Source: a bacterium BMS3Abin14 | GTDB lineage: Bacteria > BMS3Abin14 | Length of the DNA stretch: 64,000 nt | Assembly (NCBI GenBank): GCA_002897695.1 | Contig: BDTG01000043.1 | Span: forward strand, 7,934 to 71,933 | Direction of reading: 5' to 3' | In this document: one piece after another, positions 1,027 to 57,169 of the stretch | Numbering within the stretch: the first letter of the stretch is position 1 | Layout of the letters: the number at the start of each line of letters is the position of its first letter | The notes under the pieces: model-generated | What the model was told of the DNA's origin: nothing | Database searches by the model: none | The model's input: only the letters and a program-made list of their open reading frames with translations | Position numbers and translations under genes: made by a program

Positions 1027-1046
1027 CTTATCCTCGTTTCAGAATA

Positions 1047-1262
1047 GTCCAGAGTCCAGTGTCCAGAGTCGCAGATTCAAGTCCGAAACGCATAAAAAGA
1101 GGTGACATTGGGTTAAGTCTTGATAGTTTGAGTTTTAGCGGAAACCAAGCTAAGGAGACCACCCAATGTCACACGGTTATATTAGCATTGAGGAGCGTGA
1201 AATCATAGCGTTTATGTCCCCGTGCCTGTCTTTCCCCTCTGGACACTGGACTCTGGACTGGT
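1047..1262. repeat. 23-bp perfect inverted repeat built of (GTCCAGA) heptamers, bracketing a 166-bp segment with a nested 12-bp stem
   Basis: 1047-1069 agtccagagtccagtgtccagag equals the reverse complement of 1237-1259. Inner stem ggtgacattgggt (1101-1113) pairs with acccaatgtcac (1161-1172). Confidence 0.7.
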
Positions 1263-5790: not shown

Positions 5791-5813
5791 TCTTTCCTCG
5801 ACAGGAATTTTCA

Positions 5814-5847
5814 GGGGAAGGGCCGTTGCGGCTCTTCCCCTTTTTTA
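5814..5847 (+). terminator. Rho-independent terminator after rpsI
   Basis: GGGGAAGggccgttgcggCTCTTCCCC stem followed by TTTTTTA. Confidence 0.7.
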
Positions 5848-5947: not shown

Positions 5948-6994
5948 ATGACCGCCAGAGTGGGCATAATCGGGGCAACGGGTTATACGGGGATGGAGCT
6001 CATCCGGATTCTGCTGCGTCACCCCGAGGCGGACCTGACATACGCCTCGTCCAGAAGGTGGGCCGGAAAGCATCTTTTCGAGGCATTTCCAGCCTTGTCC
6101 GGACAGACGGACCTGAGGTTCAGGGCCTTGGATCCGGCCGAGGCAGCCCTGGAATCGGACCTGGTTTTCGTTTGCCTTCCCCACGGGGGGGCCATGGATA
6201 CCTCAGCTGCCCTGATGGAAAAAGGGGTTCGAACCATCGACCTGAGCGCCGACTTCAGGTTGCGGGAACGGGAGGTCTACGAGGAGTGGTATGGTCCCCA
6301 CAGTCAGGCCCAACTGCTTTCGGCCGCCGTAAACGGCTTCCCCGAGCTTTTCCGGGGGGAAATATGTGACGCTTTACTTGTGGCCAACCCGGGGTGTTAT
6401 CCGACCAGCATAATCCTGGGGTTGGTCCCGCTTGTGGAAAAGGGTCTTCTGAAGACGAATTCTATTATTGCAGACTGCAAGTCCGGTGTAAGCGGAGCCG
6501 GAAGGGAACCTAAGGATAATCTCCATTTTCCAGAGGTGGAGGGCAACTTCTCGGCCTATGGAATTGCCGGCGTGCACAGGCACACTCCCGAGATTGACCA
6601 GGAACTGACCAGGGTAGGGGGGATGGAAGTCAAGGTGACCTTTTCCCCGCATTTGCTTCCGGTCAGCAGGGGGATATTCTCGACAATCTATGCCGAACCA
6701 GCTGATTCCCTTGATGAGGAAGCCGTCTGTGATCTGTACAGGGAACGATACGGGGATGAGCCGTTCGTACGGATCCGTGAGAATCAGGAACCGCTTCCGA
6801 CCTTGAAGGAGGTTCGCGGAACCAACATGTGCATCATCGCCCCCAGGATAGATCGGAGAAACGGAAAGGTGATAATTATATCCTGTCTGGATAATCTTGT
6901 GAAAGGGGCCTCCGGACAGGCTGTACAGAACATGAATGTCATGCTGGGCCTTCCCGAGACCCTCGGGCTGCTGGATCTGCCCCTTATTCCGTAG
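5948..6994 (+). CDS. argC: N-acetyl-gamma-glutamyl-phosphate reductase
   Basis: 348 aa; N-terminal GATGYTG NAD-binding motif; ArgC family. Confidence 0.95.
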   Translation: MTARVGIIGATGYTGMELIRILLRHPEADLTYASSRRWAGKHLFEAFPALSGQTDLRFRALDPAEAALESDLVFVCLPHGGAMDTSAALMEKGVRTIDLSADFRLREREVYEEWYGPHSQAQLLSAAVNGFPELFRGEICDALLVANPGCYPTSIILGLVPLVEKGLLKTNSIIADCKSGVSGAGREPKDNLHFPEVEGNFSAYGIAGVHRHTPEIDQELTRVGGMEVKVTFSPHLLPVSRGIFSTIYAEPADSLDEEAVCDLYRERYGDEPFVRIRENQEPLPTLKEVRGTNMCIIAPRIDRRNGKVIIISCLDNLVKGASGQAVQNMNVMLGLPETLGLLDLPLIP

Positions 6995-7266
6995 GAGAAA
7001 GTTCAAGGCCCGGAGTCCAGGGTCCAACGGTTACTACAGATCCTTTCGTTTTACAGGGCCGAAAAAATCCATTCATGGTTTTTTTCTTCACCACAACCCC
7101 ACGCGGTGCCGGGTAATTAACAAAAAGTCCAATTATATCGAAAGGTTACGGCTTAACATCCAGCCTGTTTTTCTTGACACCCCATCGGTCGCGTGTTAAC
7201 TCTTAATCGAGATATGGGCAATGGGCAATAAAAGCAAGTTTGGCGTTCGAATTTCAAGGTTGTTTC

Positions 7267-7296
7267 CACTCTGGACTCTGGACTCTGGACTCTCCC
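7267..7296 (-). repeat. (GTCCAGA)3 tandem heptamer repeat, antisense orientation
   Basis: ccactctggactctggactctggactctcc on + strand; followed by a 9-bp GC stem-loop at 7292-7330. Confidence 0.7.
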
Positions 7297-13990: not shown

Positions 13991-16153
13991 ATGATAAGGC
14001 TGGGTGACATACTTGATCGGGTCCAGAGCTACAATTCGAAAGCTGACCTGGAACTCATCAACAGGGCATATGTTTTTTCGGCCAAGGCCCATGCCGGGCA
14101 TGTCCGCCAATCCGGGGAGCCGTATCTCATTCATCCCATCGAGGTTGCGTCTATCCTGACCGAGATGAAGATGGATGTGACTACCATCGTGGTGGGGCTG
14201 CTCCACGACACAGTCGAGGACACGGAGATTACCCGTGAGGACCTCCAGCGTCATTTTGGCGAGGAGACTGCCTTTCTGGTCGATGGATTGACAAAGATCA
14301 GCCGTCTGGAGTTCGCGACTTCGCAGCATGCACAGGCTGAAAACCTTCGACGGATGATCATCTCAATGGCCAAGGACATTCGGGTCATTATGGTGAAGCT
14401 CGCGGATCGGCTCCACAACATGCGCACCCTGGAACACCTCAACCCGGAAAAGCAGGTGAAGATTGCCGGGGAGACCATGGATATCTACGCCCCCCTGGCG
14501 AACCGGCTCGGGATTTCCTGGATCCAGGGAGAGCTGGAGGACATATCATTCCGGTATCTTCACCCCGAGGCATACAGGGCGCTGAATGCCAAGGTCCAGG
14601 CCAGGCGCAAGGAGTATGAGACTTACATCAAGAAAGCCATCAAGATCCTGAACAAGGCCATTGCAGACCATAACATTGATGGTGAAGTGACGGGACGGAT
14701 CAAACATCTGTACAGCGTCTATAGCAAGATGAAAGCCCAGAGCCTGACCTTTGAACAGATATACGATCTCATCGCTTTCAGAATACTCGTGAATTCGGTC
14801 AAGGACTGCTACGGTGTTCTGGGGATTATCCATTCAATGTTCAAACCGATCCCCGGCAGATTCAAGGACTATATAGGTGTTCCCAAGTCGAATCACTATC
14901 AATCCCTTCATACCACGGTCATCGGCCCCTTCCGTGAGCAGATGGAGGTCCAGATCCGTACATGGGAAATGCATCAGACAGCCGAAGACGGGATTGCCGC
15001 CCACTGGCGTTACAAGGCCGGCGAACAGCCCGTTCCGGACAAGGATATCAAACGATTTACCTGGTTTAAGCATATTCTGGAAGAGCTGAGTGATCTGGAA
15101 GATCCAAGGGAACTGATGGAAACGGTGCGCACTGATCTGTTCCCTGACGAGGTGTATGTTTTTACCCCCAAGGGACAGGTCAAGGAATTCCCCCATGGCG
15201 CTACCCCTATTGATTTTGCCTACAGCATACATACCGATGTCGGCAACTGGTGTGTCGGCGCCAAGGTCAACGGTCGAATTGTTCCCCTGAAGTACAAATT
15301 GAAGAATGGGGACATGGTCGAGATTACAACTTCGAAAAACCATAAACCAAGCAAGGACTGGCTGAAGCTGGCCGCGACAAACAGCGCCAGATCAAAGATC
15401 CGCAACTTCATTAAAAGGGAAGAAAGAGAAAAGAGCCTGGGGATAGGGGAGGAACTGCTGGACCGTGAACTCAAGAAGATGGGCACAAGCCTCAAGAAGG
15501 TGCTCAAGACCGATGCGCTTGAAAAGGTCGCTTCAACGTTCGGGTTCCATAAAGCGCAGGACCTGATCGCCACGGTGGGATTTGGAAAATATTCCTCCAG
15601 GCAGATCCTCGGCAGATTGTTCCCTGCGGAACAGATTGACGACATGCTCGGTCATGAAGAAGAGGTAAAGGCCAGGACCAAACAGGCCCGGGTCCGGGCG
15701 CAAAAGGACGGGATCGTGGTGGATGGAGTCGATGATCTCATGGTCCGATTCGCCCATTGCTGCAATCCGCTTCCGGGAGATGAGGTCGTGGGGATAATCA
15801 CACGCGGCAGAGGTATCTCCGTGCACACTGTGGATTGTCCTAACGTACTTGCCGAAGGGTACGATCACGACCGGATGGTGAAGATCAATTGGGATACCAG
15901 GGCAAAGGTCCCGAGGCTTGTCAGGATAAGGGTGATCTCGGAGGATAAAAAAGGAATTCTGGCCGAGATGACAGCAGTAATTTCATCCCGGAATATCAAT
16001 ATTTCCCATGCCGATATCAGTACGACGGCCGATTTAAGGGCCGAGAACATCTTTGAGGTCCAGGTGGAAGATCTTGGGCAGCTTCAGAGCCTCCTGAAAA
16101 ACCTGGAGGCTGTTAAAGGAGTGATGTCGGTGCAGAGGATCAAGGCAAAGTGA
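13991..16153 (+). CDS. spoT: Bifunctional (p)ppGpp synthetase/hydrolase (RelA/SpoT homolog)
   Basis: 720 aa; HD hydrolase domain (HD…TVEDT), synthetase domain, TGS and ACT regions; gmk-rpoZ-spoT synteny. Confidence 0.95.
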   Translation: MIRLGDILDRVQSYNSKADLELINRAYVFSAKAHAGHVRQSGEPYLIHPIEVASILTEMKMDVTTIVVGLLHDTVEDTEITREDLQRHFGEETAFLVDGLTKISRLEFATSQHAQAENLRRMIISMAKDIRVIMVKLADRLHNMRTLEHLNPEKQVKIAGETMDIYAPLANRLGISWIQGELEDISFRYLHPEAYRALNAKVQARRKEYETYIKKAIKILNKAIADHNIDGEVTGRIKHLYSVYSKMKAQSLTFEQIYDLIAFRILVNSVKDCYGVLGIIHSMFKPIPGRFKDYIGVPKSNHYQSLHTTVIGPFREQMEVQIRTWEMHQTAEDGIAAHWRYKAGEQPVPDKDIKRFTWFKHILEELSDLEDPRELMETVRTDLFPDEVYVFTPKGQVKEFPHGATPIDFAYSIHTDVGNWCVGAKVNGRIVPLKYKLKNGDMVEITTSKNHKPSKDWLKLAATNSARSKIRNFIKREEREKSLGIGEELLDRELKKMGTSLKKVLKTDALEKVASTFGFHKAQDLIATVGFGKYSSRQILGRLFPAEQIDDMLGHEEEVKARTKQARVRAQKDGIVVDGVDDLMVRFAHCCNPLPGDEVVGIITRGRGISVHTVDCPNVLAEGYDHDRMVKINWDTRAKVPRLVRIRVISEDKKGILAEMTAVISSRNINISHADISTTADLRAENIFEVQVEDLGQLQSLLKNLEAVKGVMSVQRIKAK

Positions 16154-16161
16154 GGTATTGA

Positions 16162-16194
16162 AGTCCAGAGTCCAGAGTCCAGAGGGAGAAAGAG
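16162..16194 (+). repeat. (GTCCAGA)3 tandem heptamer repeat immediately downstream of the spoT stop
   Basis: agtccagagtccagagtccagagggagaaagag, 8 nt after the stop codon. Confidence 0.75.
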
Positions 16195-16224
16195 CGCTCT
16201 CTAGACTTTCACGGGAGGAGTGTT

Positions 16225-16611
16225 ATGCAAAGGAAGATAATCCAGACAGATAAGGCCCCGGCGGCAATCGGGCCCTACAGCCAGGGAACCGTGCTGGGAG
16301 ACCTGGTTTTTACCGCGGGCCAGATTCCACTGGATCCGGAAAGCGGAAAGCTCCTGAAAGGGGGCATTACCGAGCAGGCCCGGCGGGCGATCGAGAATCT
16401 TGGGGCGGTTCTCAATGAGGCCGGCAGCGGTCTCGACGGGGTTTTGAGGCTGGACGTTTATATGGCCGACCTGAGTCAGTTCTCAGCCGTCAACGAATTT
16501 CTCGGGGGTGTTTTTCCGGAAAACCCTCCGTCGAGGGTGACCGTGGAGGTGGCCGGGCTCCCCATGGGGGCGCAGATTGAGATCGCGGCAATCGCCGCAA
16601 TCAAAAAATAA
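16225..16611 (+). CDS. ridA: RidA family protein (YjgF/L-PSP reactive-intermediate deaminase)
   Basis: 128 aa, typical RidA sequence (…APAAIGPYSQG…VTVEVAGLPMGAQIEIAAIA…). Confidence 0.9.
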   Translation: MQRKIIQTDKAPAAIGPYSQGTVLGDLVFTAGQIPLDPESGKLLKGGITEQARRAIENLGAVLNEAGSGLDGVLRLDVYMADLSQFSAVNEFLGGVFPENPPSRVTVEVAGLPMGAQIEIAAIAAIKK

Positions 16612-35433: not shown

Positions 35434-35463
35434 CTTCATGTCCAACGTCCAGCGGGGTAGAAC

Positions 35464-35493
35464 AGTCCAGAGTCCAGAGAGAAGAAAGGCGGA
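35464..35493 (+). repeat. (GTCCAGA)2 heptamer repeat in the glyQ-glyS spacer
   Basis: cagtccagagtccagagagaag; a degenerate copy gtccaacgtccagcgg lies at 35439-35454. Confidence 0.65.
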
Positions 35494-37657: not shown

Positions 37658-37810
37658 CCCGCCATCTCCTGTCGTCCCAAATCGCCAGAATGTTCTTGAC
37701 CGGAATCGTGGAATTGTACCAGAATGGGCCCGGATAGGGTTTTTCGTTCATGAGTCTTGAGGATCTTGTCCGTCTTATTGTTGGTCGAACAGCTGAAGGG
37801 AACTGGGAGA

Positions 37811-39118
37811 ATGGGAGCTTTCAGAAAGAATGGTTGTGGATATTTTCCGCTTTTTTTGACGGTCTTGGGTTGTCTGGTGGTTCTTGCATCCATGGTTCCT
37901 GTCGCCTGGGCAGCTGAATATTCCCTTTCTTCCAGATCCTATCTCTATCTCCACGAACGTGATAACGCAATCGGTCCCAATGACCATCTGGCTCCCCTTT
38001 ACGAGTACCTGTCCCTTGACGTATGGGACCTCAAGGAGGCTAATCTATCGTTCCATTCGTACGGATGGGGGAGGGTCGATCTCGCGGATGCATCAGCAGG
38101 CGGAAGGAACAGCGGCGACATTTCCAGCGCCTACCTCCAATACCGGTATCCCACCGGAAACGGCCAGGCGAAACTGGGCAGGTTCTTCCTGGCCGAGGGT
38201 ACTACCACCGAAACCCTGGACGGCCTTTTTCTGAAGGGCACAGGGAAAGGGGGCTTCGGCGCGTCATTCTACGCCGGGAACCCGGTGGAGAACTCAATTA
38301 TAGCTTCGGGGGGAGGGAACTCCCTCGTGGGGGGAAGGGTCTTTTACGTCCGTCCCGGTCTTGCCGAAGCCGGTTTTGGCTACCTCTTCGAGAATGGGGA
38401 TTTTCAGGGTAAAAACCGGGAGGAAGCAGGCGGCGATCTCTGGGTGCGTTTCGCGCCTTCATGGGATCTCACCGGTAAGATTGTTTACAACCTGACCACC
38501 AGCGAACTTGCCTCTCATCGGGTAGCGTTCCGCCTGGTCCCCGTCAACACTATTGACCTTGAACTGGGCACTGAAGGTTACCGCTACGATGGTCTGTTTC
38601 AAAAATCCCTTCATCCGGCGTTTCTGCCGCCGTCCGCAAATGGCAGCGACAAGGTCCGAAAACTGTTCGCGGACTGTGACTGGCAGGCCACTGAGAGACT
38701 GTCCGTTCAGGCCGGCGTCAAAAGAATCCACCACGACGCCGATGATCCGGGTGACGCTGCCTACGGAGAGCTTGGCTTTCGCCTTCAGATGGAAGGGGTC
38801 CTGAACCTGCTCGGTTTTTCGGCAGCCCTTCAGACTGCCGATCTGTCGGAGAACGAATATCGGGAATTAAGAGGATGGCTCATGGGAACCGTCAGGAAGT
38901 GGAGTTTTTCCCTCGATGCCCTGACCTATCTCTACGAGGTGCCCGTCAACGGAGTGGATACCTCCACCCAGATTGTAGGCTCTGCCGGTTGGAAGGCCAG
39001 TACCCTTCTTTCTCTTTCCGGCGACGTGAGATACACCCGGAGCCCCCGGTATGCCAAGGATCTGACCATACTGCTCAGGGCGGACTTTGCCCTGGACGGA
39101 TCATGGGGAGGGAAGTAA
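37811..39118 (+). CDS. Secreted Gly-rich protein, putative outer-membrane beta-barrel (porin-like), adjacent to multihaem cytochromes
   Basis: Signal peptide …LASMVPVAWA/AEY; alternating amphipathic beta-strand-like segments; Gly-rich stretches. ATG 37811 preferred over the listed 37757. Confidence 0.5.
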   Translation: MGAFRKNGCGYFPLFLTVLGCLVVLASMVPVAWAAEYSLSSRSYLYLHERDNAIGPNDHLAPLYEYLSLDVWDLKEANLSFHSYGWGRVDLADASAGGRNSGDISSAYLQYRYPTGNGQAKLGRFFLAEGTTTETLDGLFLKGTGKGGFGASFYAGNPVENSIIASGGGNSLVGGRVFYVRPGLAEAGFGYLFENGDFQGKNREEAGGDLWVRFAPSWDLTGKIVYNLTTSELASHRVAFRLVPVNTIDLELGTEGYRYDGLFQKSLHPAFLPPSANGSDKVRKLFADCDWQATERLSVQAGVKRIHHDADDPGDAAYGELGFRLQMEGVLNLLGFSAALQTADLSENEYRELRGWLMGTVRKWSFSLDALTYLYEVPVNGVDTSTQIVGSAGWKASTLLSLSGDVRYTRSPRYAKDLTILLRADFALDGSWGGK

Positions 39119-39120
39119 TT

Positions 39121-39585
39121 ATGAGGTACGTGAGGGGATTTCTGCTTTTTGTGCCGGTGCTGCTTCTCCTGACCGCCTGCTCCGGGTTATCCACAAGAGA
39201 GTCGGTACCGCTCCGCCACCCGGAGGAGCTTGAGCAGGGCAGGGTCAACTGTCTCGAATGTCACGAAGACGAAACGTCCGGAGCCCTTAAACCCTACGGC
39301 TCTTTCCCGCACACGGCGGTTTTTCTCAAGGAACACGGATCTTACGCCTCTCAGACCCAGAACCTCTGTTCCACCTGTCACTCACCCTCCTGGTGTCAGA
39401 CGTGTCATGCCGTCCGTGAGGAACTCAAGCCTGGAATCAAGTACGGCAATCGTCCTGATCTGGGCCTGCCCCATCGGGGAGATTTCATAATACAGCACCA
39501 GAAGGAAGGGAGGATCGACCCGGGATCGTGTCTGACTTGTCACGGCAACCGGAACAACCGGGTATGCGGCAGGTGCCATCATTGA
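39121..39585 (+). CDS. Pentahaem c-type cytochrome lipoprotein
   Basis: Lipobox LLTAC; five CxxCH motifs (CLECH, CSTCH, CQTCH, CLTCH, CGRCH) in 154 aa. Confidence 0.8.
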   Translation: MRYVRGFLLFVPVLLLLTACSGLSTRESVPLRHPEELEQGRVNCLECHEDETSGALKPYGSFPHTAVFLKEHGSYASQTQNLCSTCHSPSWCQTCHAVREELKPGIKYGNRPDLGLPHRGDFIIQHQKEGRIDPGSCLTCHGNRNNRVCGRCHH

Positions 39586-39609
39586 TGACTTCGTGAAAAG
39601 TCATCAATG
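39580..39609 (+). repeat. 12-bp-stem hairpin CATTGATGACTT…AAGTCATCAATG (family-2 related) overlapping the cytochrome stop codon
   Basis: Seen directly; related AAAAGTCATCAAT core also at 10014-10043. Confidence 0.6.
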
Positions 39610-39771
39610 CGCCCACTTGGGGGCCTCAAATCGAAGATTTGTGAGGAGAGCGGAAATGACACTTTTCGCTTTCCGTGGAGTAAAAGGTAACGGATGCACT
39701 TTTTACGACTCTAATAATATATACAGAGCCCGCGAACCAGGGAAACTGTCTGTGATATTCCGGAGGTTGAG

Positions 39772-40431
39772 ATGAAAACAGGGATAAACAGGATAAAAAG
39801 GGAACGGGGAATTGCCGCGGGCCTTTCATCGCCCTGGATACCCGGTGTCTGGGCCCACCCCCTCACCCACACGGATCCGGTAGTATCCCACGGCCAGTTC
39901 AAGGGCACCCCTGACGAGACTGTTTGCATCAACTGCCATGATGTCAACAACCAGTTCGGCAACATGCCCACGCCGTTCTGTCACAACTGCCATGGAAGTT
40001 CCCATAGCGTTCCCTCTCTGGACCACAACCAGGTTGCGCCGCTGCAGGTGGATTTCGATGGGAACTGTTCCGGTTGCCACAGTATCGACGGTTCTGCCCA
40101 GTCATTCGCCCCCGCGTGTACCACCTGCCACAAGGGGGGAAGCCCCTACATCTACACTAACTGCAGGTCCTGCCACGGAAAACCCCCCGACGGCGGAGCC
40201 CCCGTATACAGTAATTTCCCCAATCTGCAGGGGAAGCATGACAAACACAAAAGCGTCGCCACCTGTTCCGACTGCCACAGCGGCGGCGGATCGGGCGCGG
40301 GTCTCAACCACGGTTATGACAACATTGTGAACCTCCAGGCGCCTTCTGGAATCACCTTTTCTCCGGGGAGCGGCAACGTAACCTGTGCCGGTACGTGCCA
40401 CGAGAATCACAACAACCGACAATGGTACTGA
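39772..40431 (+). CDS. Multihaem c-type cytochrome (6 CxxCH plus one CxxxCH)
   Basis: CINCH, CHNCH, CSGCH, CTTCH, CRSCH, CSDCH and CAGTCH; weakly hydrophobic N-terminal region. Confidence 0.75.
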   Translation: MKTGINRIKRERGIAAGLSSPWIPGVWAHPLTHTDPVVSHGQFKGTPDETVCINCHDVNNQFGNMPTPFCHNCHGSSHSVPSLDHNQVAPLQVDFDGNCSGCHSIDGSAQSFAPACTTCHKGGSPYIYTNCRSCHGKPPDGGAPVYSNFPNLQGKHDKHKSVATCSDCHSGGGSGAGLNHGYDNIVNLQAPSGITFSPGSGNVTCAGTCHENHNNRQWY

Positions 40432-40520
40432 ACCACACCCTGTCGATGACATATGGGTTGAGTTGTGTGACGACCCGGCAGTGGATAGCGAAGGAGGAAG
40501 CTTCGCCAGGAAGCGAAGGA

Positions 40521-40597
40521 TGGTGCCCCCGGCAGGACTCGAACCTGCGGCCCCAGGATTAGGAATCCTGTGCTCTATCCTGCTGAGCTACGAGGGC
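40521..40597 (-). tRNA. tRNA-Arg (anticodon CCT), CCA encoded
   Basis: Reverse complement folds as a cloverleaf: acceptor GCCCTCG/CGGGGGC, D-stem GCTC/GAGC, anticodon stem CAGGA/TCCTG with loop TTCCTAA, T-arm GCAGG-TTCGAGT-CCTGC, discriminator A and CCA. Confidence 0.85.
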
Positions 40598-40806
40598 ATT
40601 TGAAGCCTGAAAACGAGTAATGGAAACTAGCACTCAATAATACCGGTGTCAATGCAGGTGCAGCCCCGCAACCCATGCCGGATCAGCATTCTCCGGTGTG
40701 TAACCGACAATTCTCTCCTTGACCATCCCTGGATTTACATATATTTTCCCAAGTTAGCAAATATGTTAATTACTGAAATTTCGGGTCATCGCAAAAACGA
40801 GTATTT

Positions 40807-40830
40807 GAAGACTTTTTACGACCCTGTCAG
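40807..40830 (-). repeat. Family-2 motif copy (reverse orientation), 62-85 nt upstream of the UDP-sugar dehydrogenase gene
   Basis: gaagactttttacgaccctgtcag is the reverse complement of ctgacagggtcgtaaaaagtcttc. Confidence 0.65.
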
Positions 40831-40891
40831 TATGTGACTGAAAACTTTTTTCTCGCATCCGTTTGTCACACACATTAACCGGAGACCAACC

Positions 40892-42199
40892 ATGTCGAAT
40901 CTAGCTGAGCTGAAAAAAAAGATTGAAACCCGAACCGCGGTGTGTGCGGTAATCGGCCTGGGATATGTGGGCCTTCCCCTGGCCGTGGAACTTGCACTTG
41001 CCGGTTTCAATGTTGTCGGGATAGACAACGACCCATCCAAAGCCGCCCGCGTCCTGGAAGGGGAGTCGTACATACCGGACGTGCCCTCCGATGTCCTTAA
41101 AAAGGTCACTGAATCAGGCGCCTTTTCCGCAACCGTCGATTTTTCCGTCCTCTCGGATTGCGACACCGTCAACATCTGTGTGCCGACTCCCTTGAACAAG
41201 ACCAGGGATCCGGATATCTCCTTTATTGTCGACAGCCTCGAGGGGATAAAACCTCATGTTCACTCGGGGATGATGATAATTCTGGAAAGTACCACCTACC
41301 CCGGGACCACCGATGAGATCGTTGTGCCTGCCGTTACGGGGACAGACCTGAAGTTGGGGAAGGACATCTTTGTCGCATTCTCACCGGAAAGGGTGGATCC
41401 GGGGAACCCGACATTCAATACCAGGAACATCCCTAAGGTGGTAGGCGGCGCAACCTCCAAATGTACTGAAGTCGCGGTCCTCTTTTACAGGCAGTTTCTG
41501 GAAAAGGTCTTTCCTGTGAGCACCACGGCCGTCGCCGAGATGGTGAAAATCCACGAGAATACCTTCAGAAGTGTTAATATCGGTCTGGTCAACGAACTGG
41601 CCCTCATGTGCGACCGGCTGGAAATCGATGTCTGGGAGGTCATCGAAGGCGCTTCAACCAAACCTTTCGGGTTCCTTCCGTTCTATCCCGGCCCCGGCCT
41701 CGGGGGACACTGCATACCTATCGACCCCTATTACCTCTCCTGGAAGGCCCGTTCGGTAGGTTTCGAGGCCAGATTTATCGAACTGGCAGGGCAAGTCAAC
41801 AGTTTCATGCCCACCCACGTGGTTTCCAGAGCGGTTGACGCCCTTAACGATGTCGGCAAAGCGTTAAAAGGCGCCCGCATCGTGATTTTGGGGGTGGCGT
41901 ACAAGAAAAATATCGACGACCTGCGTGAATCGCCTGCTCTGGACATCATGAATCGACTGAGTGATAAAGGGGTTCAGCTTTCCTTTTCCGATCCATACAT
42001 CCCCACCCTTGACATCGGGGAACGTTCTTTCACCGCAGTTGAGGCTACGCCTGACCTCCTGCAGATGGCCGATCTCGTGATCATCGTCACCGATCACGAC
42101 CTGTTCAATTACGACATGATCGTGTCAAACGCACCCCTCATACTCGACACGAGAAATGCGCTCAAGGGAAAGAACGGGCCGAAGATCTGGAGAATCTAG
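40892..42199 (+). CDS. Nucleotide-sugar dehydrogenase, UDP-N-acetyl-D-glucosamine 6-dehydrogenase-like (WbpO/TviB family)
   Basis: UDPG/MGDP dehydrogenase family with N-terminal extension before GLGYVG, as in WbpO/TviB-type enzymes. Confidence 0.8.
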   Translation: MSNLAELKKKIETRTAVCAVIGLGYVGLPLAVELALAGFNVVGIDNDPSKAARVLEGESYIPDVPSDVLKKVTESGAFSATVDFSVLSDCDTVNICVPTPLNKTRDPDISFIVDSLEGIKPHVHSGMMIILESTTYPGTTDEIVVPAVTGTDLKLGKDIFVAFSPERVDPGNPTFNTRNIPKVVGGATSKCTEVAVLFYRQFLEKVFPVSTTAVAEMVKIHENTFRSVNIGLVNELALMCDRLEIDVWEVIEGASTKPFGFLPFYPGPGLGGHCIPIDPYYLSWKARSVGFEARFIELAGQVNSFMPTHVVSRAVDALNDVGKALKGARIVILGVAYKKNIDDLRESPALDIMNRLSDKGVQLSFSDPYIPTLDIGERSFTAVEATPDLLQMADLVIIVTDHDLFNYDMIVSNAPLILDTRNALKGKNGPKIWRI

Positions 42200-42215
42200 A
42201 TATTGGAGGCCGCGT

Positions 42216-43169
42216 ATGAATGATCGGGTGCTCGTTACCGGCGGTGGGGGGTTCATCGGATCGCACCTGGTCCGTGGGCTCCTGTCTGAGGGTTACAGGG
42301 TATCCGTGCTCGATAACTTCATGACAGGACACAGGAAAAACCTCCAGGAAGTTGCGGGCGATATCGAAGCCGTCTGGGAATCGGACGTAAGGGACCTTCA
42401 ATCCTGTCTGAAAGCCGTGAAGGGCGTCACCGCCGTGTTCCATCTCGCGGCCCTCGCCTCGGTTTCGGGAAGCATTGAGGAACCGATCCTCTCCCATGAG
42501 ATAAACCTCACCGGCACCCTGAACATGCTTCAGGCCGCACGGAAAAATAGCGTTCAGGGATTCATCTTTTCCTCATCCGCGGCTGTTTACGGGGATGGTC
42601 CCGCCATGCCGAAAAAAGAGAACATGAAACCTGATCCGATGTCCCCTTATGCACTTCACAAGCTTGCCGGGGAATACTACTGCAGGCAATATTCAGCTCT
42701 TTTCGGTCTAAAGACAGCATCCCTGAGATACTTTAACGTATTCGGCGCCCGGCAGGACCCTGAAAGTCAGTACGCCGCCGCGGTTCCCATTTTCATGTCG
42801 GCCATCCTGAAGGACGAACCGGTCCATATCTACGGGGATGGGGAGCAAACCAGGGACTTTGTCTACGTCGGGGACGTGGTACGGGCCAATCTTCAGGCCC
42901 TCAGGTCCGAGGGGCTCAACGGACAGGTGATGAACATCGCCGGTGGAGAGAAGGTCACTATTAACGGGCTCCTGAAGGCTCTCGAAGCCGTCTCGGGCGT
43001 ATCGGCCGAAAAGGTGTACTCCGATCCACGGCCAGGTGACATAAGACACTCCAGGGCTGATATTTCAGCGGCTTCCGCCCATATCGGCTACAAACCGGCA
43101 GTTGGTCTCGAGGATGGTTTACGCAGGACCTTTCAATGGTTCCGCAAGGCCCGGTGGGCCGGGCAATGA
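42216..43169 (+). CDS. NAD-dependent epimerase, UDP-GlcNAc(A) C4-epimerase-like (WbpP/TviC family)
   Basis: GGGGFIGS Rossmann motif, YxxxK catalytic motif (YALHK); paired with the WbpO-like gene. Confidence 0.8.
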   Translation: MNDRVLVTGGGGFIGSHLVRGLLSEGYRVSVLDNFMTGHRKNLQEVAGDIEAVWESDVRDLQSCLKAVKGVTAVFHLAALASVSGSIEEPILSHEINLTGTLNMLQAARKNSVQGFIFSSSAAVYGDGPAMPKKENMKPDPMSPYALHKLAGEYYCRQYSALFGLKTASLRYFNVFGARQDPESQYAAAVPIFMSAILKDEPVHIYGDGEQTRDFVYVGDVVRANLQALRSEGLNGQVMNIAGGEKVTINGLLKALEAVSGVSAEKVYSDPRPGDIRHSRADISAASAHIGYKPAVGLEDGLRRTFQWFRKARWAGQ

Positions 43170-44275
43170 TCTCCCGCGACGGTTTCGCGCTGAAAGTCCT
43201 GAAGCACATGAAGAGCGCGCTCGTCGTCATTGACAGGGAGGGAAGTGTGCTTGTCCTGAACCGGTCTGCAAGAAAAATCCTCTCCCTCGGCAACGAGGAC
43301 ATCGCAATAGGGAAAAGCTGCAGAGATGTCTTTGCGGCCTACCCGTATCTTTCGGATCTGCTCATGACCTCCTTCGACATCCACACTCTGCCGGATCGAG
43401 CCGAGCTGGAATTGAAGGGGCGGCCTGCCGGAGACCGGAAGGTTGTAGGGTACACCCTTTCCCCGGTTTACGGGGACGATGGTGAACGGCTGGGAACGGC
43501 CCTGTTCTTCAAGGATCTTACTGAGGTTGAACGCCAGGAAACGAAGGAACGGATCAGGGATCGCCTTGTATCCCTGGGTGAGATGGCTGCCTGGCTCGCG
43601 CATGAGATACGCAACCCTCTTGCCGCCATCGAGGTATCCGCCGGCCTCCTTTTGAAGGATGAGAAGGATCCATCACGCACGGAATCCGTACGGGATATCC
43701 TTTCGGAAGTTAAAAGGCTCAATACGATTATTACCCAGACCCTGGATTTCGTCCGATCCAGGCCTTTGAACCTGCAGTACTGTGATCTCAACGCGGTGCT
43801 CACCGACACCCTGAATGAATGCCTCCAGGGCAGGAATGACATCGAAATTTCGCTCACATTGAACGATATCGGCCCCGTGCTCCTTGACACACCCCAGATC
43901 TCCCATGCGCTGGGAAACATCATTGTCAACTCCTGTGAGGCGATGCCCGATGGAGGTACATTGAGCGTGTCCATATACACAGTGCCTTCGGAAGCGGGAG
44001 GTCAGGTTCCCGAAACTTTCACGAATCATGTCGTACGGGAAATGGAGAACATCGTGGTGGAGATAGCCGATACGGGTGTCGGAATCCCGGAGGATGTGAT
44101 CGGCAAGGTCTTCACCCCTTTCTTTACTACAAAAAACGGTGGAACGGGGATCGGCATGTCCCTTGCCCAGAAAGTGGTTACGGAGCACTGGGGTATTCTG
44201 GACATTGAAAGCGCCTATGGAAAAGGGACCAAATTCAAGGTTATACTACCCAAATTCACATCTGTGGAGGGTTAG
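43166..44275 (+). CDS. Sensor histidine kinase (PAS - HisKA - HATPase_c), cytoplasmic
   Basis: H-box AHEIRNPL, N/G1/G2 boxes (…NSCEAM…, DTGVGI, GGTGIGMS). Start overlaps the epimerase stop (ATGA). Confidence 0.8.
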   Translation: MISRDGFALKVLKHMKSALVVIDREGSVLVLNRSARKILSLGNEDIAIGKSCRDVFAAYPYLSDLLMTSFDIHTLPDRAELELKGRPAGDRKVVGYTLSPVYGDDGERLGTALFFKDLTEVERQETKERIRDRLVSLGEMAAWLAHEIRNPLAAIEVSAGLLLKDEKDPSRTESVRDILSEVKRLNTIITQTLDFVRSRPLNLQYCDLNAVLTDTLNECLQGRNDIEISLTLNDIGPVLLDTPQISHALGNIIVNSCEAMPDGGTLSVSIYTVPSEAGGQVPETFTNHVVREMENIVVEIADTGVGIPEDVIGKVFTPFFTTKNGGTGIGMSLAQKVVTEHWGILDIESAYGKGTKFKVILPKFTSVEG

Positions 44276-44299
44276 ACAGCATTACAACAGGAGATTTGA

Positions 44300-45671
44300 C
44301 GTGGGCAGGTTTCTGATAGTGGAAGACCAGGCGGTGCTTCGCAAGGGCATCGTCAAGGTGTTTATTGCCGATGGTCACAATGTGGACGAGGCGGCAGATG
44401 GTGAGACAGCACTTCAATTGCTGTCCCGGTGGAATTACGATGTGGTGATCACGGACCTTAAACTTCCCGGGATCAGCGGGATGGAGGTCCTGAAGCATTC
44501 GAAGGCCAACGCTCCGGCCACCGACGTGTTGATCATGACCGCCTACGGGACCATCGAAACAGCCATCGAGGCCATGAAACTTGGGGCCTTTGATTTCCTG
44601 CAGAAGCCGTTCGGCATACCGGAGCTGGAAATGCGCGTTGAAAAGGCTCTGCAGCAGAGAATGCTGAAAAACGAGGTGGATTATCTGCGTCATGAGAGGG
44701 ATATCGTCTACAGGATTGAGGACTTTATCGGGGAGAGCCCGGCCATAAAGAAAGTTTACCGCGATGTATCCAGGGTGGCTCCATCCTCAACCAACGTCCT
44801 TATCACCGGTGAGACCGGGACCGGAAAAGAACTTATCGCCGGGGCGATCCATTACAACAGCCCAAGGGCAAAAAACAGCTTTATCAAGGTTAACTGCGCT
44901 GCCATCCCGGAAAACCTTCTTGAGAGCGAGCTGTTCGGCCATGAAAAGGGGGCGTTCACAGGTGCTGTCAACCAGAGAATAGGGCGTTTTGAACAGGCGA
45001 ACGGCGGGAGTATCCTCCTGGACGAGATCGGGGACATGAGCCCCCTTATTCAGGCCAAGATACTCCGTGTGATCCAGGACCGGCAGTTTGAAAGGCTCGG
45101 AGGCAATGCGGTCATTACGTCGGATGTGAGGATCATAGCGGCTACCAACAAGGACCTCGCCAGGGAGATGGAGATAGGTACATTCAGAGAGGATCTGTTT
45201 TACCGTTTGAATGTCGTTCACATCCCTCTTCCCTCCCTCAGGGAACGGCAGGGGGATATCCCCCTGCTCACGGATTTCTTTATCAAGCGCTTTAACGGGG
45301 AATTAAAGAGGGATGTCAAGGGTGTCGGTGAGCAGGCCATGAAGACCATGCTCAGCTACACATGGCCGGGAAACGTCCGGGAGCTGGAAAATGCACTTGA
45401 GCGAGCGGTTCTCATGTCTGACGGTGACTATCTGGATGTGTCGGACATTAATATCTCCGCCCCTGTCATGCCATTCAGGGATGTTCATACCCCCGGCACC
45501 TCCCCGCTCGATCTCAAGGACCTGGAAAAGGAGGCGGTCCTGGAGGCCCTGAGAAAGACTGACTATGTCCAGAAGGACGCCGCAGAGGTCCTCGGAATCT
45601 CAAAGAGGGTCATGCACTACAAAATCCAGCAGTTCGGCATCAAGCATCCCCGATGGATCAAAAACCGATAA
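44300..45671 (+). CDS. Sigma-54-dependent transcriptional regulator, NtrC-type (REC - AAA+ sigma54-activation - Fis HTH)
   Basis: REC with ITDLKLP; Walker [15 protein letters not shown], Walker [20 protein letters not shown]-terminal HTH; GTG start with RBS aggag. Confidence 0.9.
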
Positions 45672-45673
45672 CG

Positions 45674-45716
45674 AAAGTCCAGAGTCGAAAGTCCAGAGTC
45701 CAGAGGGGAAAAGCGG
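45674..45716 (+). repeat. (GTCCAGA) heptamer repeat cluster directly after the stop of EBP1
   Basis: gaaagtccagagtcgaaagtccagagtccagaggggaaaagcggg. Confidence 0.75.
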
Positions 45717-45992
45717 GCAATGCGCTGTAGGCTCTGGGCTATGGGTAAAGAGGTCCAGAAAACAATGTCCAATGACCAGCGATGTCATTGCGAGGAGCAT
45801 CGAGGGAAACGAGAGTGACGGTTTACCACGTCGAAGCCACAGGAGCGAAGACGGGCGGCAATCCAGAAGGCGGAACCTTTATAACATATTGACAACATGA
45901 CTGCCTAAAAGTTATTACAAAATTGAAACATCTCATGGAATTGTGTGCAGAAATCTGTTCTGCCGGGGGGCGAGGGGAGTCGGAAGTTGGCA

Positions 45993-47345
45993 ATGGTGCT
46001 GGTAGTAGAGGATGATCTTGATTTCAGGGAACTTGTGGCTGGAGTTCTGTCGGAAAACGGGTACAGGGTTGACGAGGCGCCTGACGGTGAGACGGCCCTC
46101 CAGCTGATCGGCAATACAAAGTATGACGTCATTATCTGTGACGTAAAGCTCCCGGGGATTTCCGGCATGGATGTGCTCCGGGAGGCCAAATCCCAGTCGC
46201 CAGACACTGAAGTCCTCATAATGACCAGTTACGGATCAGTGGACAGCGCCGTAAAATCCATGAAGATGGGCGGGTTCGATTATCTTCAGAAACCGTTTGG
46301 CCTTGCTGAACTTGAGATGAGGGTAGAAAAGGCGGTTCGCCACAGGATGCTCTGCAATGAGGTCTCCTATCTCAGGCACGAGCGTGACATCATATACCGG
46401 TTTGAGGACATCATCGGAAGGAGCCACTCGACCAGGGAGTTCCTGGAGGAGGCTGAACGCGCTGCGATGGTGGACGGCCCGGTCCTTCTTTACGGAGAGC
46501 CGGGAACCGGTCGAAAACTCATTGCGGGGGCGATCCATTACAACAGCGAACGTCATAGCGGGGGTTTTGTGCGTGTCAACAGCGCCGGCATGCGGGAAAG
46601 ATACCTTGCCGGCGACCTCTTCGGCCACGTACGGGGCGCTTTTGACGGCGCCGGCCGCGCCAGGACCGGGCGTTTCGAACAGGCCAATGACGGCACCATC
46701 CTCCTCGAGGAAATCTCCCATGTTTCCCTTGACAACCAGGACCGTATTCTCGAGTTTCTTGAAACCGGAAAACTCCTTCGGATCGGACACTCGAAGTCCA
46801 TTTCACTTGACGTCCGCCTTATTGTCACATCAAGCACGGACCTTGGAAAGAAGGTGCGCGAAGGGGGGTTCCGCGAGGAACTGTATTCATTGATATCTGC
46901 CACCACCATTCGGGTTCCCCCATTGAGAAGTCGAAAGGAAGACATTCCCCTCCTTGCCGAATATTTTTTGAGATCTCTTCCAAAAGAGCTTATGAAACAG
47001 GATGTTGTCAGTATCTCCTCCTCAGCTTTCGTGAAGCTCACAGAGTATCCATGGCCCGGGAATATCAGGGAATTGAAGAACGTTATCGAACGTTCCGTTC
47101 TGACCGGCACCGGGGAGATAATTGAGGCGTCGGACATCCAGCTGCCCGATGAGAATGTGGCTTCCTCAGGATACTCGGGACTGATTCTGAAAGAAATGGA
47201 GAAAGCCGCCGTTGTGGACGCACTGAGGAGAGCAAACTTCGTTCAGAAGGACGCCGCAAAGATACTGGGCATCACAAAAAGGGTGATGCACTACAAGATC
47301 CAACAGTTCGGGATCAAGCATCCCCGGTGGATTAAGAACAGATAA
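45993..47345 (+). CDS. Paralogous NtrC-type regulator with degenerate AAA+ motifs (putative ATPase-inactive pseudo-EBP)
   Basis: Same architecture and an almost identical C-terminal HTH (VQKDAA…[21 protein letters not shown]). Walker A GEPGTGRKL (K to R), GAFDGA in place of GAFTGA, Walker B ILLEEI (D to E). ORF opens at GTG 45945; ATG 45993 preferred. Confidence 0.8.
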   Translation: MVLVVEDDLDFRELVAGVLSENGYRVDEAPDGETALQLIGNTKYDVIICDVKLPGISGMDVLREAKSQSPDTEVLIMTSYGSVDSAVKSMKMGGFDYLQKPFGLAELEMRVEKAVRHRMLCNEVSYLRHERDIIYRFEDIIGRSHSTREFLEEAERAAMVDGPVLLYGEPGTGRKLIAGAIHYNSERHSGGFVRVNSAGMRERYLAGDLFGHVRGAFDGAGRARTGRFEQANDGTILLEEISHVSLDNQDRILEFLETGKLLRIGHSKSISLDVRLIVTSSTDLGKKVREGGFREELYSLISATTIRVPPLRSRKEDIPLLAEYFLRSLPKELMKQDVVSISSSAFVKLTEYPWPGNIRELKNVIERSVLTGTGEIIEASDIQLPDENVASSGYSGLILKEMEKAAVVDALRRANFVQKDAAKILGITKRVMHYKIQQFGIKHPRWIKNR

Positions 47346-47347
47346 AG

Positions 47348-47380
47348 AAAGTCCAGAACTGTTCTTCCCCTCTGGACTCT
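47348..47380 (+). repeat. GTCCAGA-derived hairpin directly after the stop of EBP2
   Basis: aaagtccagaactgttcttcccctctggactct forms an 8-bp stem AGTCCAGA/TCTGGACT. Confidence 0.7.
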
Positions 47381-47396
47381 TAATCAGGAGGTTAAA

Positions 47397-48704
47397 ATGC
47401 ACATTACAGTTATCGGAACCGGGTACGTCGGGCTGGTGACAGGAACCTGTTTCGCCGAGTTCGGGGTTGATGTTACCTGCGTGGACAACGATCCGGAGAA
47501 GGTCTCCATGCTCAAGAAAGGCAAGATCCCCATTTACGAGCCCGGGCTCGAGGAGATGGTGAGGAAAAATACTGATGAGGGGAGGCTGCACTTTTCCACC
47601 AATATCGTTGATGGAATTGAAGAATCCCTGGTTATCTTCATCGCTGTCGGAACGCCACCCCGGGAGGATGGAAGCGCCGATCTGACCTATGTGGAGGATG
47701 TGGCCGGCAGCATCGGGAAGAACATGAACGATTACAAGGTGATCGTTACCAAGAGCACAGTTCCGGTGGGAACAGGAGAGAGGATTCGGGAGATCATTTC
47801 CGGCTACAGGCCGGACAACGATTTTGATGTCGCCTCGAACCCGGAATTCCTGCGGGAGGGATCAGCTATCGAGGATTTCATGCGGCCTGACCGTATCGTT
47901 ATCGGGGCGGAAAGTTCCCAGGCCAAGGCCATTCTCAAGGACCTGTACAAGCCCCTGTATCTCATCGAAACGCCCTTTGTGATAACCAACGTCGTTACGG
48001 CCGAACTTATAAAATACGCCTCCAACGCCTTTCTGGCCACCAAGATCTCCTTTATTAACGAGATGGGAAATATCTGCGAGGCCATTGGAGGCGATGTCAA
48101 CGTTATTGCCAGAGCCATGGGGCTTGATGGACGGATCGGCCCGAAATTTCTTCATGCCGGACCGGGCTACGGGGGGTCCTGCTTTCCCAAGGACACCAGC
48201 GCCCTGACGCGGATCGCCAGGGAGGTGGGAGAGCCGACCGGAATCGTGGAATCGGTGATCAGGGTCAATGAGAAGCAGAAGATGAGAGCATTTGAGAAAG
48301 TCCTGCATGCCTCCGGCGGCTCGCTCATGGGAAAAACGGTCGCCCTTCTCGGCCTGGCGTTCAAACCCAATACCGACGATTTTCGGGATGCCCCCGCCGA
48401 GGTAATTATTCGGGGGATCACAGGTGGAGGCGGGAACGTGAAAGCATACGATCCCGCGGCCATGGGACAGGCAAGGGATGTCCTCGGCGACGATGGGATA
48501 AAATACTGCAAAAATGCCTATGATGCCGTTGAGGATGCCGATGTGATGGTAATCGTCACCGAGTGGAATCAATTTCGTCTCCTGAACCTGGCCAGGTGCA
48601 TGGAACTTATGAAGGAGCCTGTCCTCGTTGATCTCCGAAATGTCTGCGACCCGAATCTCACACGGGAGATGGGGTTTAAATACATATCCGTTGGAAGACC
48701 GTAA
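47397..48704 (+). CDS. ugd: UDP-glucose 6-dehydrogenase
   Basis: GTGYVG NAD motif; catalytic Cys region GGSCFPKD. Confidence 0.9.
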   Translation: MHITVIGTGYVGLVTGTCFAEFGVDVTCVDNDPEKVSMLKKGKIPIYEPGLEEMVRKNTDEGRLHFSTNIVDGIEESLVIFIAVGTPPREDGSADLTYVEDVAGSIGKNMNDYKVIVTKSTVPVGTGERIREIISGYRPDNDFDVASNPEFLREGSAIEDFMRPDRIVIGAESSQAKAILKDLYKPLYLIETPFVITNVVTAELIKYASNAFLATKISFINEMGNICEAIGGDVNVIARAMGLDGRIGPKFLHAGPGYGGSCFPKDTSALTRIAREVGEPTGIVESVIRVNEKQKMRAFEKVLHASGGSLMGKTVALLGLAFKPNTDDFRDAPAEVIIRGITGGGGNVKAYDPAAMGQARDVLGDDGIKYCKNAYDAVEDADVMVIVTEWNQFRLLNLARCMELMKEPVLVDLRNVCDPNLTREMGFKYISVGRP

Positions 48705-48709
48705 CCACC

Positions 48710-57081: not shown

Positions 57082-57169
57082 ATCCAGAGTCCAAGGCCTT
57101 CCGCGGTGTAGCCCGAAGGACGAAGACGGGTCCAGAGTCCAAAGAATAGGGGGGCCGAATTTCGGCCCC
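57082..57169 (+). repeat. Two TCCAGAGTCCAA units separated by a GC stem, followed by a perfect hairpin GGGGCCGAA-TTTCGGCCCC
   Basis: Seen directly in the livK-livH spacer, beginning 10 nt after the stop codon. Confidence 0.7.

Follow-up and report, generated by a model that had tools for sequence, protein, structure and literature searches.

Heptamer-armed palindromes between the genes of bacterium BMS3Abin14: a probable interspersed repeat family with likeness to REP and STRR elements

In a 64,000-nucleotide stretch of the genome of bacterium BMS3Abin14 (contig BDTG01000043.1, positions 7,934 to 71,933, in the following termed the window), short tandem arrays of the heptamer GTCCAGA are found between genes, with the focal example starting at position 16162 behind the stop codon of spoT. 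An earlier note on this DNA had described these arrays as a dispersed family and had proposed that they act at the level of RNA. Best supported by our analysis is a genome-specific family of small, non-coding repeats, which resemble repetitive extragenic palindromic (REP) elements or the short tandemly repeated repetitive (STRR) sequences and are not a demonstrated RNA regulator. Beyond this description, we lean towards viewing the family as an interspersed hairpin repeat akin to REPs and REPINs, with arms consisting of heptamer microsatellites of the STRR/LSSR class (LSSR, long simple sequence repeat), which is maintained at the level of DNA.

Heptamers of the GTCCAGA type are arranged in tandem at all nine loci that had been listed, each of which is intergenic, at a frequency about 60-fold above chance. 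When allowing for up to two mismatches, (GTCCAGA)2 matches the window 13 times compared to 0.56 matches expected from shuffled sequences, and the exact triplicate (GTCCAGA)3 is contained at 7270-7290 and 16163-16183. Six arrays with a period of 7 and copy numbers of 2.3-4.3 were detected by Tandem Repeats Finder (1046-1075, 1237-1259, 7268-7293, 16162-16184, 35464-35479 and 45676-45705). The relaxed unit GTCCRRN in at least two copies was found nine times instead of the expected 0.145 times and all nine matches fall into non-coding DNA, which accounts for 10% of the window (p ~1e-9), with none of these arrays residing inside a coding sequence (CDS) of the window. Among spacers of at least 40 nt, an element is found in 7 of 25 located between co-directional genes and in none of the 8 between convergent or divergent ones, and the elements end ahead of the Shine-Dalgarno (SD) sequence of the next gene. 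For the definition of gene context we have relied on database gene calls and on a gene finder with a pooled codon model, which reproduces these calls in the window, since the stop-free arrays lengthen open reading frames (ORFs) and thus render longest-ORF calls and codon models of individual loci too noisy. A profile hidden Markov model search of 82.7 kb identified no copies other than those described here, which corresponds to eight modules at a density of about one per 10 kb. The arrays are not artefacts of assembly, since they recur in assemblies of this species obtained independently from ENA, NCBI and Logan.

The organizing unit of the family is an oriented palindrome of the form 5'-(GTCCAGA)n, loop, (TCTGGAC)n-3'. 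We distinguish seven elements in the window, E1 (1041-1262, minus strand), E2 (7013-7296, minus), E3 (16162-16207, plus), E4 (35439-35493, plus), E5 (45674-45745, plus), E6 (47348-47380, minus) and E7 (57082-57144, plus), which share an anatomy consisting of the sequence GGGTAnAAC, two to four copies of (A)GTCCAGA, a purine-rich tail of the type GGGGAAAAG, a loop of 13-240 nt and one to four copies of TCTGGAC. The tail, noted previously as GGGGAAA(A)G, is found at six arms, where it follows six of the seven 5' arms (GGGGAAAG, GGGGAAAAG, GGGAGAAAG, GAGAAGAAAG, GGGGAAGAA and GTGGAAAC). Inverted pairs do exist, although there are three rather than the two counted initially (1047/1238, 7013/7267 and 47351/47371), and imperfect partner arms are additionally located at 16197-16207 and 45732-45744. 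Stems of 8-23 bp are predicted at E1, E2, E5 and E6, which have the consensus of the module in common and in this correspond to the extragenic imperfect palindromes of REPs, bacterial interspersed mosaic elements (BIMEs) and REPINs.

This organization also changes the interpretation of the strand bias on which the proposed RNA-level role was based. The family is genuine, intergenic in the window and located 5-20 nt behind stop codons, yet such a position in sense orientation applies to seven of the nine arrays and not to eight, as had been stated. The seven upstream genes named in the earlier note are correct: the gene of an ABC ATPase (array 1238-1260, minus strand), argC, spoT, glyQ, the genes of two enhancer-binding proteins (EBP1 and EBP2) and a livK-type gene. 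In contrast, two arrays are antisense arms in front of start codons, the one at 1047-1070 at a distance of 20 nt from the ATG of a flavin reductase gene on the minus strand (460-1026) and the one at 7267-7296 at a distance of 57 nt from a response-regulator gene (7353). In both cases it is the sense arm that follows the preceding stop codon, and the two arms bracket the entire spacer (252 and 358 nt, respectively). Because an oriented palindrome reads alike from both strands, the arm adjacent to the stop codon will always appear as sense, which explains the described bias and removes its value as evidence for a function in RNA. Conversely, the asymmetric tail makes the orientation of a module relative to its flanking genes readable. 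By this measure four modules (E1, E3, E4, E5) run in the sense of their flanking genes and two (E2, E6) are antisense to them, so that modules are inserted in both orientations relative to transcription.

Evidence for dispersal by copying comes from the comparison of elements at different loci. An eighth copy (E8, L227:14787), located between ubiA and a gene encoding a DUF362 protein 10 kb beyond the end of the window, contains the same variant array GTCCAGA-GTCCAGT-GTCCAGA as E1 at a distance of about 77 kb, and E1, E8 and E4 align over about 55 nt encompassing GGGTAnAAC-(AGTCCAG)n-AGGGGAAAGAC-GGAC-GCGGGGAC. Flanks and a variant unit that are common to different loci indicate that the module has spread by copying instead of having originated independently at each site. 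Once in place, the arrays change in length. In comparison with a strain of 99.2% identity, the arrays at 7267 and 1047 are each shorter by exactly one unit (7 nt), the former in L121 and the latter, which constitutes the 3' arm of E1, in strain SONG20-1, whereas the remaining comparable arrays are identical between strains and E3 is unchanged across four strains. The exact gain or loss of 7 nt between nearly identical strains reflects replication slippage. In SONG20-1, a scaffold gap of 100 N (L125:18793-18892) begins directly after the GTCCAGA array of E5 (45691), and such heptamer repeats thus break short-read assemblies.

A further view on the evolution of the family is provided by a relative with 74% identity in SpoT and 68% in RidA (L134), whose orthologous spacer between spoT and ridA shows a matching architecture built from a unit of the GTCCAAC type. 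Its 5' arm, located behind the stop codon, reads GTCCAAT-GTCCAAC-GTCCAAC-GACCAAC, the inverted arm is placed about 50 nt before the start of ridA and the predicted outer stem comprises about 28 bp (z = –7.3). The position has thus been kept or used anew and each genome has its own unit, with GTCCAGA dominating in the genome of the window and GTCCAAC in its relative, both conforming to the family consensus GTCCARN. In spoT loci from gut metagenomes (L183, L192, L196 and L203) we observed (TTAGGAA)n arrays with inverted partners at orthologous sites near spoT. Being unrelated in sequence, these demonstrate that heptamers other than those of the GTCCA family also form palindromes.

The individual elements differ in the extent of their arms and in the quality of the predicted hairpin. 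The focal element E3 is placed between spoT (13991-16153) and the RidA-family gene (16225-16611) and reads TGA-ggtattga-A(GTCCAGA)3-GGGAGAAAGAG-cg-CTCTCTAGACT-ttcacGGGAGGAGtgttATG, with the array at 16163-16183 located 8-9 nt past the stop codon of spoT, the tail GGGAGAAAGAG at 16184-16194, the imperfect partner arm CTCTCTAGACT at 16197-16207 and the SD sequence and ATG of ridA following at 16213-16227. E1 is located between the stop codon of the ABC ATPase gene (1279) and the ATG of the flavin reductase gene (1026). On the minus strand, its 5' arm GTCCAGA-GTCCAGT-GTCCAGA (1258-1238) is followed by the tail GGGGAAAG (1237-1230), a loop of about 165 nt and the 3' arm TCTGGAC-ACTGGAC-TCTGGAC (1067-1047), in which the variant unit GTCCAGT is mirrored as ACTGGAC. 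The predicted RNA fold contains a perfect outer stem of 23 bp (z = –5.5). The loop harbours an inner inverted repeat of 12-17 bp (1095-1185, GTGACATTGGGTGGTC ... GACTTAACCCAATGTCAC, with a predicted stem of about 17 bp), which could be an operator or a piece of a nested structured element, and a 58-residue ORF is called in the database on the opposite strand at this site. An Rfam search of the region 1000-1300 at E ≤1 returned a single spurious match of 8 bits. E2 extends between the stop codon of argC (6994) and the ATG of the response-regulator gene (7353). It combines a degenerate arm at 7014-7028 (AGTCCAGGGTCCAAC) with a second arm at 7270-7290, which reads (TCTGGAC)3 on the plus strand and on the minus strand constitutes the tail-bearing arm with three copies of GTCCAGA followed by GTGGAAAC, placing the module antisense to its genes. 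The two arms are predicted to form a long-range stem of 17 bp including G·U pairs (z = –2.1). Within its loop (7050-7215) we noticed a terminator-like hairpin with a run of T (GGGCCGAAAAAATCCATTCATGGTTTTTTT) and a promoter-like site of the TTGACA type.

E4 is located between glyQ and glyS, where the degenerate units GTCCAAC-GTCCAGC (35440-35453) precede (GTCCAGA)2 (35465-35478) and the tail GAGAAGAAAGGCGGACGCGGGGGAC. Downstream of glyS, the gene content of SONG20-1 (L125) differs from that of the window, L126 and L127, and the variable region (37658-40891), which adjoins a tRNA-Arg(CCU) gene (40521-40597, minus strand), may be a small integration hotspot. E5 begins 5 nt past the stop codon of EBP1 with an array extending to 45704 (AGTCCAGAGTCGAAAGTCCAGAGTCCAGA), followed by the tail GGGGAAAAG (45705-45713) and an imperfect inverted arm at 45732-45744 (CTCTGGGCTATGG), for which an imperfect hairpin with a stem of 11 pairs is predicted (z = –2.3). 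E6, located between EBP2 and ugd, is a minimal hairpin in which AGTCCAGA (47350-47357) pairs with TCTGGACT (47371-47378) in a stem of 8 bp, with its tail GGGGAAG on the minus strand and the module thus antisense to its genes. E5 and E6 occupy the EBP1/EBP2 and EBP2/ugd junctions of a region (40892-49693) in which a sensor kinase and the two sigma-54 enhancer-binding proteins are encoded between paralogous pairs of UDP-glucose dehydrogenase and epimerase genes (40892-43169 and 47397-49693). Finally, E7 resides between a gene encoding a livK-type binding protein and livH and consists of two segments, ATCCAGAGTCCAA (57082-57094) and GTCCAGAGTCCAAA (57130-57143), with a small hairpin in between. 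Directly behind it and before livH we found a G+C-rich perfect hairpin without a T tract (GGGGGGCCGAATTTCGGCCCCC, 57149-57170). A second family of heptamers (ATGGGCA, GGCTATA, GGCTGTA and GGGTAAA) appears within or just 5' of the GTCCAGA modules (7214-7227 and 45727-45747 in the window and L227:14752-14779), which defines the elements as mosaics of heptamer tracts; by its count in the window (2 versus 1.5 expected for ATGGGCA/GGCTATA) this second family is not above chance.

The properties of the family can be compared with those of known repeats. The earlier note had not recognised a named REP/BIME-type family, and at the gathering score an Rfam search of the whole window matched only a tRNA; still, the kind of repeat can be named as heptameric intergenic repeats of the STRR/LSSR class with REP/BIME-like behaviour. 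The literature that we searched contains no description of a bacterial GTCCAGA repeat or of the peptide it encodes. Heptamers of the STRR type were reportedly described from heterocystous cyanobacteria by Mazel in 1990, and Mrazek is said to have identified heptamers as the dominant class of long microsatellites in bacteria in 2007 (both as cited in PMC4692102 and PMC4679880). The elements display the traits of this class, with a head-to-tail unit of 7 nt present in two to many copies, dispersed and mostly intergenic locations (non-coding throughout in the window), several unit variants per genome and an unstable unit number. STRR1 (AGTCCCC) even shares its AGTCC core with AGTCCAG, and loci of Nostochopsis, Scytonema and Plectonema containing (GTCCAGA)3 are among the matches listed in the cross-phylum scan described below. 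The host, in contrast, is an uncultured hydrothermal or marine bacterium (with the proteins of the window deposited as 'bacterium BMS3Abin14' and 'Proteobacteria bacterium') instead of the heterocystous cyanobacterium of the original STRR definition, although the broader LSSR class carries no restriction of host. The GTCCAGA arrays also differ by being part of a module with conserved non-repeat flanks, a single arm order and proximity to stop codons, none of which has, to our knowledge, been documented for STRRs. That the GTCCAGA family adds to the known class of heptameric repeats is the best-supported assignment.

The REPs and BIMEs of Enterobacteria and Pseudomonas are short extragenic imperfect palindromes found in many dispersed copies and both orientations, often as inverted pairs. 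They are typically located behind stop codons within operons, for example after the binding-protein genes of ABC transporters, where they can form hairpins at the 3' end of an mRNA. Further marks of REPs are a conserved GTAG at the 5' end and their mobilisation by RAYT transposases. The GTCCAGA elements are likewise extragenic dispersed palindromes in both orientations, which follow stop codons in operon-like spacers, and the position of E7 between livK and livH matches the classic pattern. The arms of REPs are not tandem heptamers, and in the GTCCAGA family we found no GTAG at the feet of the arms and no transposase in about 83 kb of the genome. Miniature inverted-repeat transposable elements are defined by terminal inverted repeats together with a target-site duplication; the arms of the GTCCAGA elements act as inverted termini, and no direct duplication was seen on reading the junctions of E1. 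Rickettsia palindromic elements (RPEs), which are 100-150 bp long and restricted to Rickettsia, persist in frame inside conserved genes. This behaviour is shared by heptamer hairpins in DnaE, PurL, CarA and Der of other phyla, whereas RPEs are not built of tandem heptamers and the window holds no copy inside a CDS. Related to the REPs are the REPINs of Enterobacteria and Pseudomonas (PMC3116915). Among heptamers, direct repeats of TAACTGA lie between genes in marine Beggiatoaceae, cyanobacteria and Bacteroidetes, in sets of two to six copies with hundreds of sets per genome and one unit in distant phyla (MacGregor, 2015; PMC4679880). In these repeats, inverted sets are almost absent (1 in 170) and the unit contains stop triplets (PMC4679880), while the GTCCAGA family starts behind stop codons, is free of stops in six frames and commonly has an inverted partner. 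The stop-free unit is no special property, as 50% of all heptamers share this trait, and this candidate was rejected. The GGGAATC and GGGGA(C/T)T heptamers of Xanthomonas and Nostoc are intergenic, differ in length among close relatives and in some cases form inverted pairs, but consist of G-tract units forming G-quadruplexes (Rehm, 2015; PMC4692102). Such a structure was rejected for GTCCAGA, which lacks a GG and any longer run of G.

To place the family in a wider context we used an exact scan for (GTCCAGA)3 with one genome per species, which returned at least 120 stretches in at least about 90 genomes from more than 10 phyla and forms the basis for the cross-phylum counts. The matches listed include Planctomycetota, Acidobacteriota, Verrucomicrobiota, Chloroflexota, Cyanobacteria, Bacteroidota, Gemmatimonadota, Nitrospirota, Latescibacterota, Proteobacteria, Myxococcota, Actinomycetota and the candidate phyla radiation. 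The polarity of the arms was analysed for 106 of these arrays with full flanks, by searching for an inverted arm with at least 12 of 14 matching positions within 200 nt. Among the matches listed, 21 arrays, corresponding to 19 elements of about 16 genomes, have the inverted arm on the downstream side of the GTCCAGA-sense arm and no array has it on the upstream side (p = 4e-6). This order holds for paired elements in CDSs (9) as well as in co-directional (6), convergent (4) and divergent spacers (1), so convergent 3' untranslated regions (UTRs) do not offer an explanation. It also applies to related units (GTCCAGG, AGTCGAG, AGTTCGG and others). GTCCAGA is thus 5' and TCTGGAC 3' in every paired element of the window genome and of the matches listed from more than 10 phyla, which cannot be explained by thermodynamics since the stem is identical in both arrangements. 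In the same set, the sense arm is located within 12 nt of an upstream stop codon in 22 of 42 cases compared to 5 of 41 on the antisense side (p = 1e-4), with the stop often being created at the junction, as in a T joined to AGTCCAG.

In other phyla the arm-loop-arm unit is found in frame inside bona fide housekeeping proteins including DnaE, PurL, CarA and Der/EngA. In DnaE, the HHH_6 domain of Pfam is matched by 122 residues over a profile of 90 positions, and comparison with Pfam also locates insertions in linkers of CarA, Der/EngA and PurL, the latter at an identical site in an acidobacterium and a planctomycete. These RPE-like copies argue for a generation at the level of DNA and filtering by tolerance, and the flanks shared by dispersed copies likewise point to a repeat at the level of DNA. 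Unpaired arrays inside CDSs (matches listed) show a ratio of 25:3 in favour of the sense orientation, which is readily explained by the hydrophilic peptide VQSPESR compared to the hydrophobic SGLWTLD of the opposite strand. A search with (VQSPESR)6 aimed at sizing the population inside CDSs yielded 894 word candidates and six significant short proteins and was not useful. In a Planctomycetaceae metagenome-assembled genome (MAG, L001), two adjacent uvrA-like genes are read as a single ORF of 1694 residues through 5948-5975 as a consequence of a stop-free heptamer palindrome between them, and more heptamer-derived insertions are found inside each UvrA copy. In an alphaproteobacterial MAG (L107), a CarB-like ORF, which is a single gene for the large subunit of carbamoyl-phosphate synthase, contains several in-frame insertions from different heptamer families (SESRVQSPE, SSEFRVQSS and NSELRTPNS).

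Collectively, these features indicate a module that is copied between loci and resized by slippage in steps of 7 nt, with the two arms mirroring each other including their variant units. Either intrastrand template switching or selection acting on the hairpin may keep the arms complementary. Elements survive only where a stop-free hairpin insert does little harm, which here is the first 5-20 nt behind a stop codon, ahead of the ribosome-binding site of the next gene, and in other phyla includes in-frame linkers of housekeeping proteins. By analogy to REPs and BIMEs, a stem-loop behind the stop codon could act in the mRNA as a barrier for 3'-to-5' exonucleases or as an RNase III site and would in this way stabilise the message of the upstream cistron compared with that of the downstream one. 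It is thus plausible that the hairpin at the 3' end protects or processes the message of the upstream gene.

Several observations weigh against a REP-like hairpin repeat kept at the level of DNA. The consequence for the mRNA would follow solely by analogy with REPs, and the two arms of E2 may never be part of one transcript in light of the terminator- and promoter-like sites in its loop. The local folds of E3 (z = –0.3), E4 (z = +1.6) and E7 are no better than those of shuffled sequences. About 83 kb of the genome revealed neither an enzyme that would copy the module nor a RAYT-like gene nor a target-site duplication. Of the arrays in other phyla (matches listed), about 65-80% have no detectable partner arm, and periodic transversion mismatches in the arms indicate that perfect pairing is not strongly maintained. 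Finally, slippage, tolerance and thermodynamics leave the constant order of the arms unaccounted for.

Among the competing explanations, a selected RNA element as favoured by the earlier note, be it a stabiliser in the 3'-UTR, an intercistronic RNase III processing site or an attenuation signal, whose position and orientation would be under selection in the mRNA, appears unlikely to us. It would be in accordance with the 5' arm starting 5-20 nt behind the stop codon in all seven elements of the window, with the elements ending before the next SD sequence, with the co-directional, operon-like context of all seven spacers and with the retention of the element between spoT and ridA across about 26% protein divergence. 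However, the palindromic order of the arms already produces the sense appearance, modules are found in both orientations relative to transcription and elements also reside inside coding sequences of other phyla. On the sense strand, 7 G·U stand against 4 A·C mismatches in the stems, which is no excess of the former, and most mismatches are transversions; this comparison is uninformative and contains no signal of stem selection, and there is neither an Rfam match nor a U-tract terminator. Unpaired arrays in spacers of other phyla (matches listed) lean towards sense by 22 to 11, which is not significant (p = 0.08) and is confounded with the replication strand. Gene direction and a positive GC skew, marking the G-rich and probably leading strand, coincide in the window, and biases linked to transcription and replication can therefore not be separated there.

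We regard it as doubtful that the arrays are plain microsatellites, generated in place by a slippage process favouring units of 7 nt, without dispersal or function and with inverted partners arising by chance or fold-back. The predominance of heptamers and the polymorphisms of a single unit would fit such an origin, as they do the hairpin repeat with heptamer arms that we favour. Exact arrays with at least three copies in the listed loci have a period of 7 in 201 cases (76 of them of other units) compared to at most 15 for any other period from 4 to 12, and in 519 kb not ascertained by repeats six arrays have a period of 7 and none a period of 5, 6 or 8-12. Mosaic tracts of related heptamers flank many arrays in these loci. 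In viral contigs, three-copy arrays of GTCCAGA were found 4 times, compared to 0, 4 and 2 times for control heptamers of the same composition and 4 times for STRR1, and we can make no claim of a special status of GTCCAGA among heptamers. The dominance of period 7 reproduces the excess of heptamers already described in bacteria (PMC4679880, PMC4692102), for which the slippage hypothesis of Mrazek, as summarised in the same publications, would account. This explanation is at odds with the non-repeat flanks and the identical variant array shared by loci 77 kb apart, the tail conserved at six arms, the prevalence of one unit family per genome and the arm order of 19:0 (matches listed), where fold-back or chance would predict about 1:1.

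Similarly improbable is a multivalent binding array, in which (GUCCAGA)n as a structure-free single strand phased by 7 nt, or the (UCUGGAC)n arm with its GGA located before start codons, would serve as landing pad for an RNA- or DNA-binding protein resembling CsrA, Csp or S1. The array contains no self-complementary trinucleotide, the antisense arms present a GGA every 7 nt at distances of 20 and 57 nt upstream of two start codons, and the core GTCCA/AGTCC recurs with constant polarity in different genomes and phyla. An equivalent hypothesis was put forward for the TAACTGA repeats (PMC4679880). Conversely, we have identified no candidate protein, the flanking genes have no functional theme in common, the number of units is free to vary, proteins tolerate arrays within them and most arrays of the window are sequestered, or could be, in a predicted stem. 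Highly improbable, finally, is either a contingency switch, in which phase variation of the unit number upstream of starts would tune the expression of the downstream gene, or a hairpin terminator: although both strain-variable arrays (1047 and 7267) are arms upstream of a start codon and hairpins follow stop codons, it is not obvious how 7 nt more or less in a 5' leader would switch a gene on or off, flavin reductase and response regulator are not typical contingency genes and entire spacers, with a promoter-like site among their contents, lie within E1 and E2. An intrinsic terminator was rejected, as a scan of 1-20 kb revealed none at the elements, with no run of T following the arms and the only canonical terminator located away from them at 5813-5841.

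The copying agent and the cause of the arm order are the most interesting points of the system. We see a slim but attractive prospect that the constant arm order, shared across more than 10 phyla and every genomic context, and the genome-specific units at orthologous sites mark the hairpin as substrate of an unrecognised, widespread machinery with specificity for sequence and structure, which could be a single-strand DNA enzyme of the HUH/RAYT type, a templated copying system or a process coupled to replication. If so, this machinery would create, spread and homogenise heptamer-armed palindromes and provide a mechanism for the excess of heptamers in bacteria, including the cyanobacterial STRRs with their AGTC(C) core. 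Our analysis adds three testable facts, a copied module with conserved flanks, one arm order across distant phyla and the tolerance directly behind stop codons and in frame inside essential proteins. On the practical side, heptamer elements can produce spurious or real gene fusions, as for the uvrA pair described above, and offer markers for strain typing in uncultured lineages. Should the polarity turn out to stem from a dedicated enzyme or from a mechanism coupled to replication, the question of why the unit counts 7 nt would become experimentally approachable.

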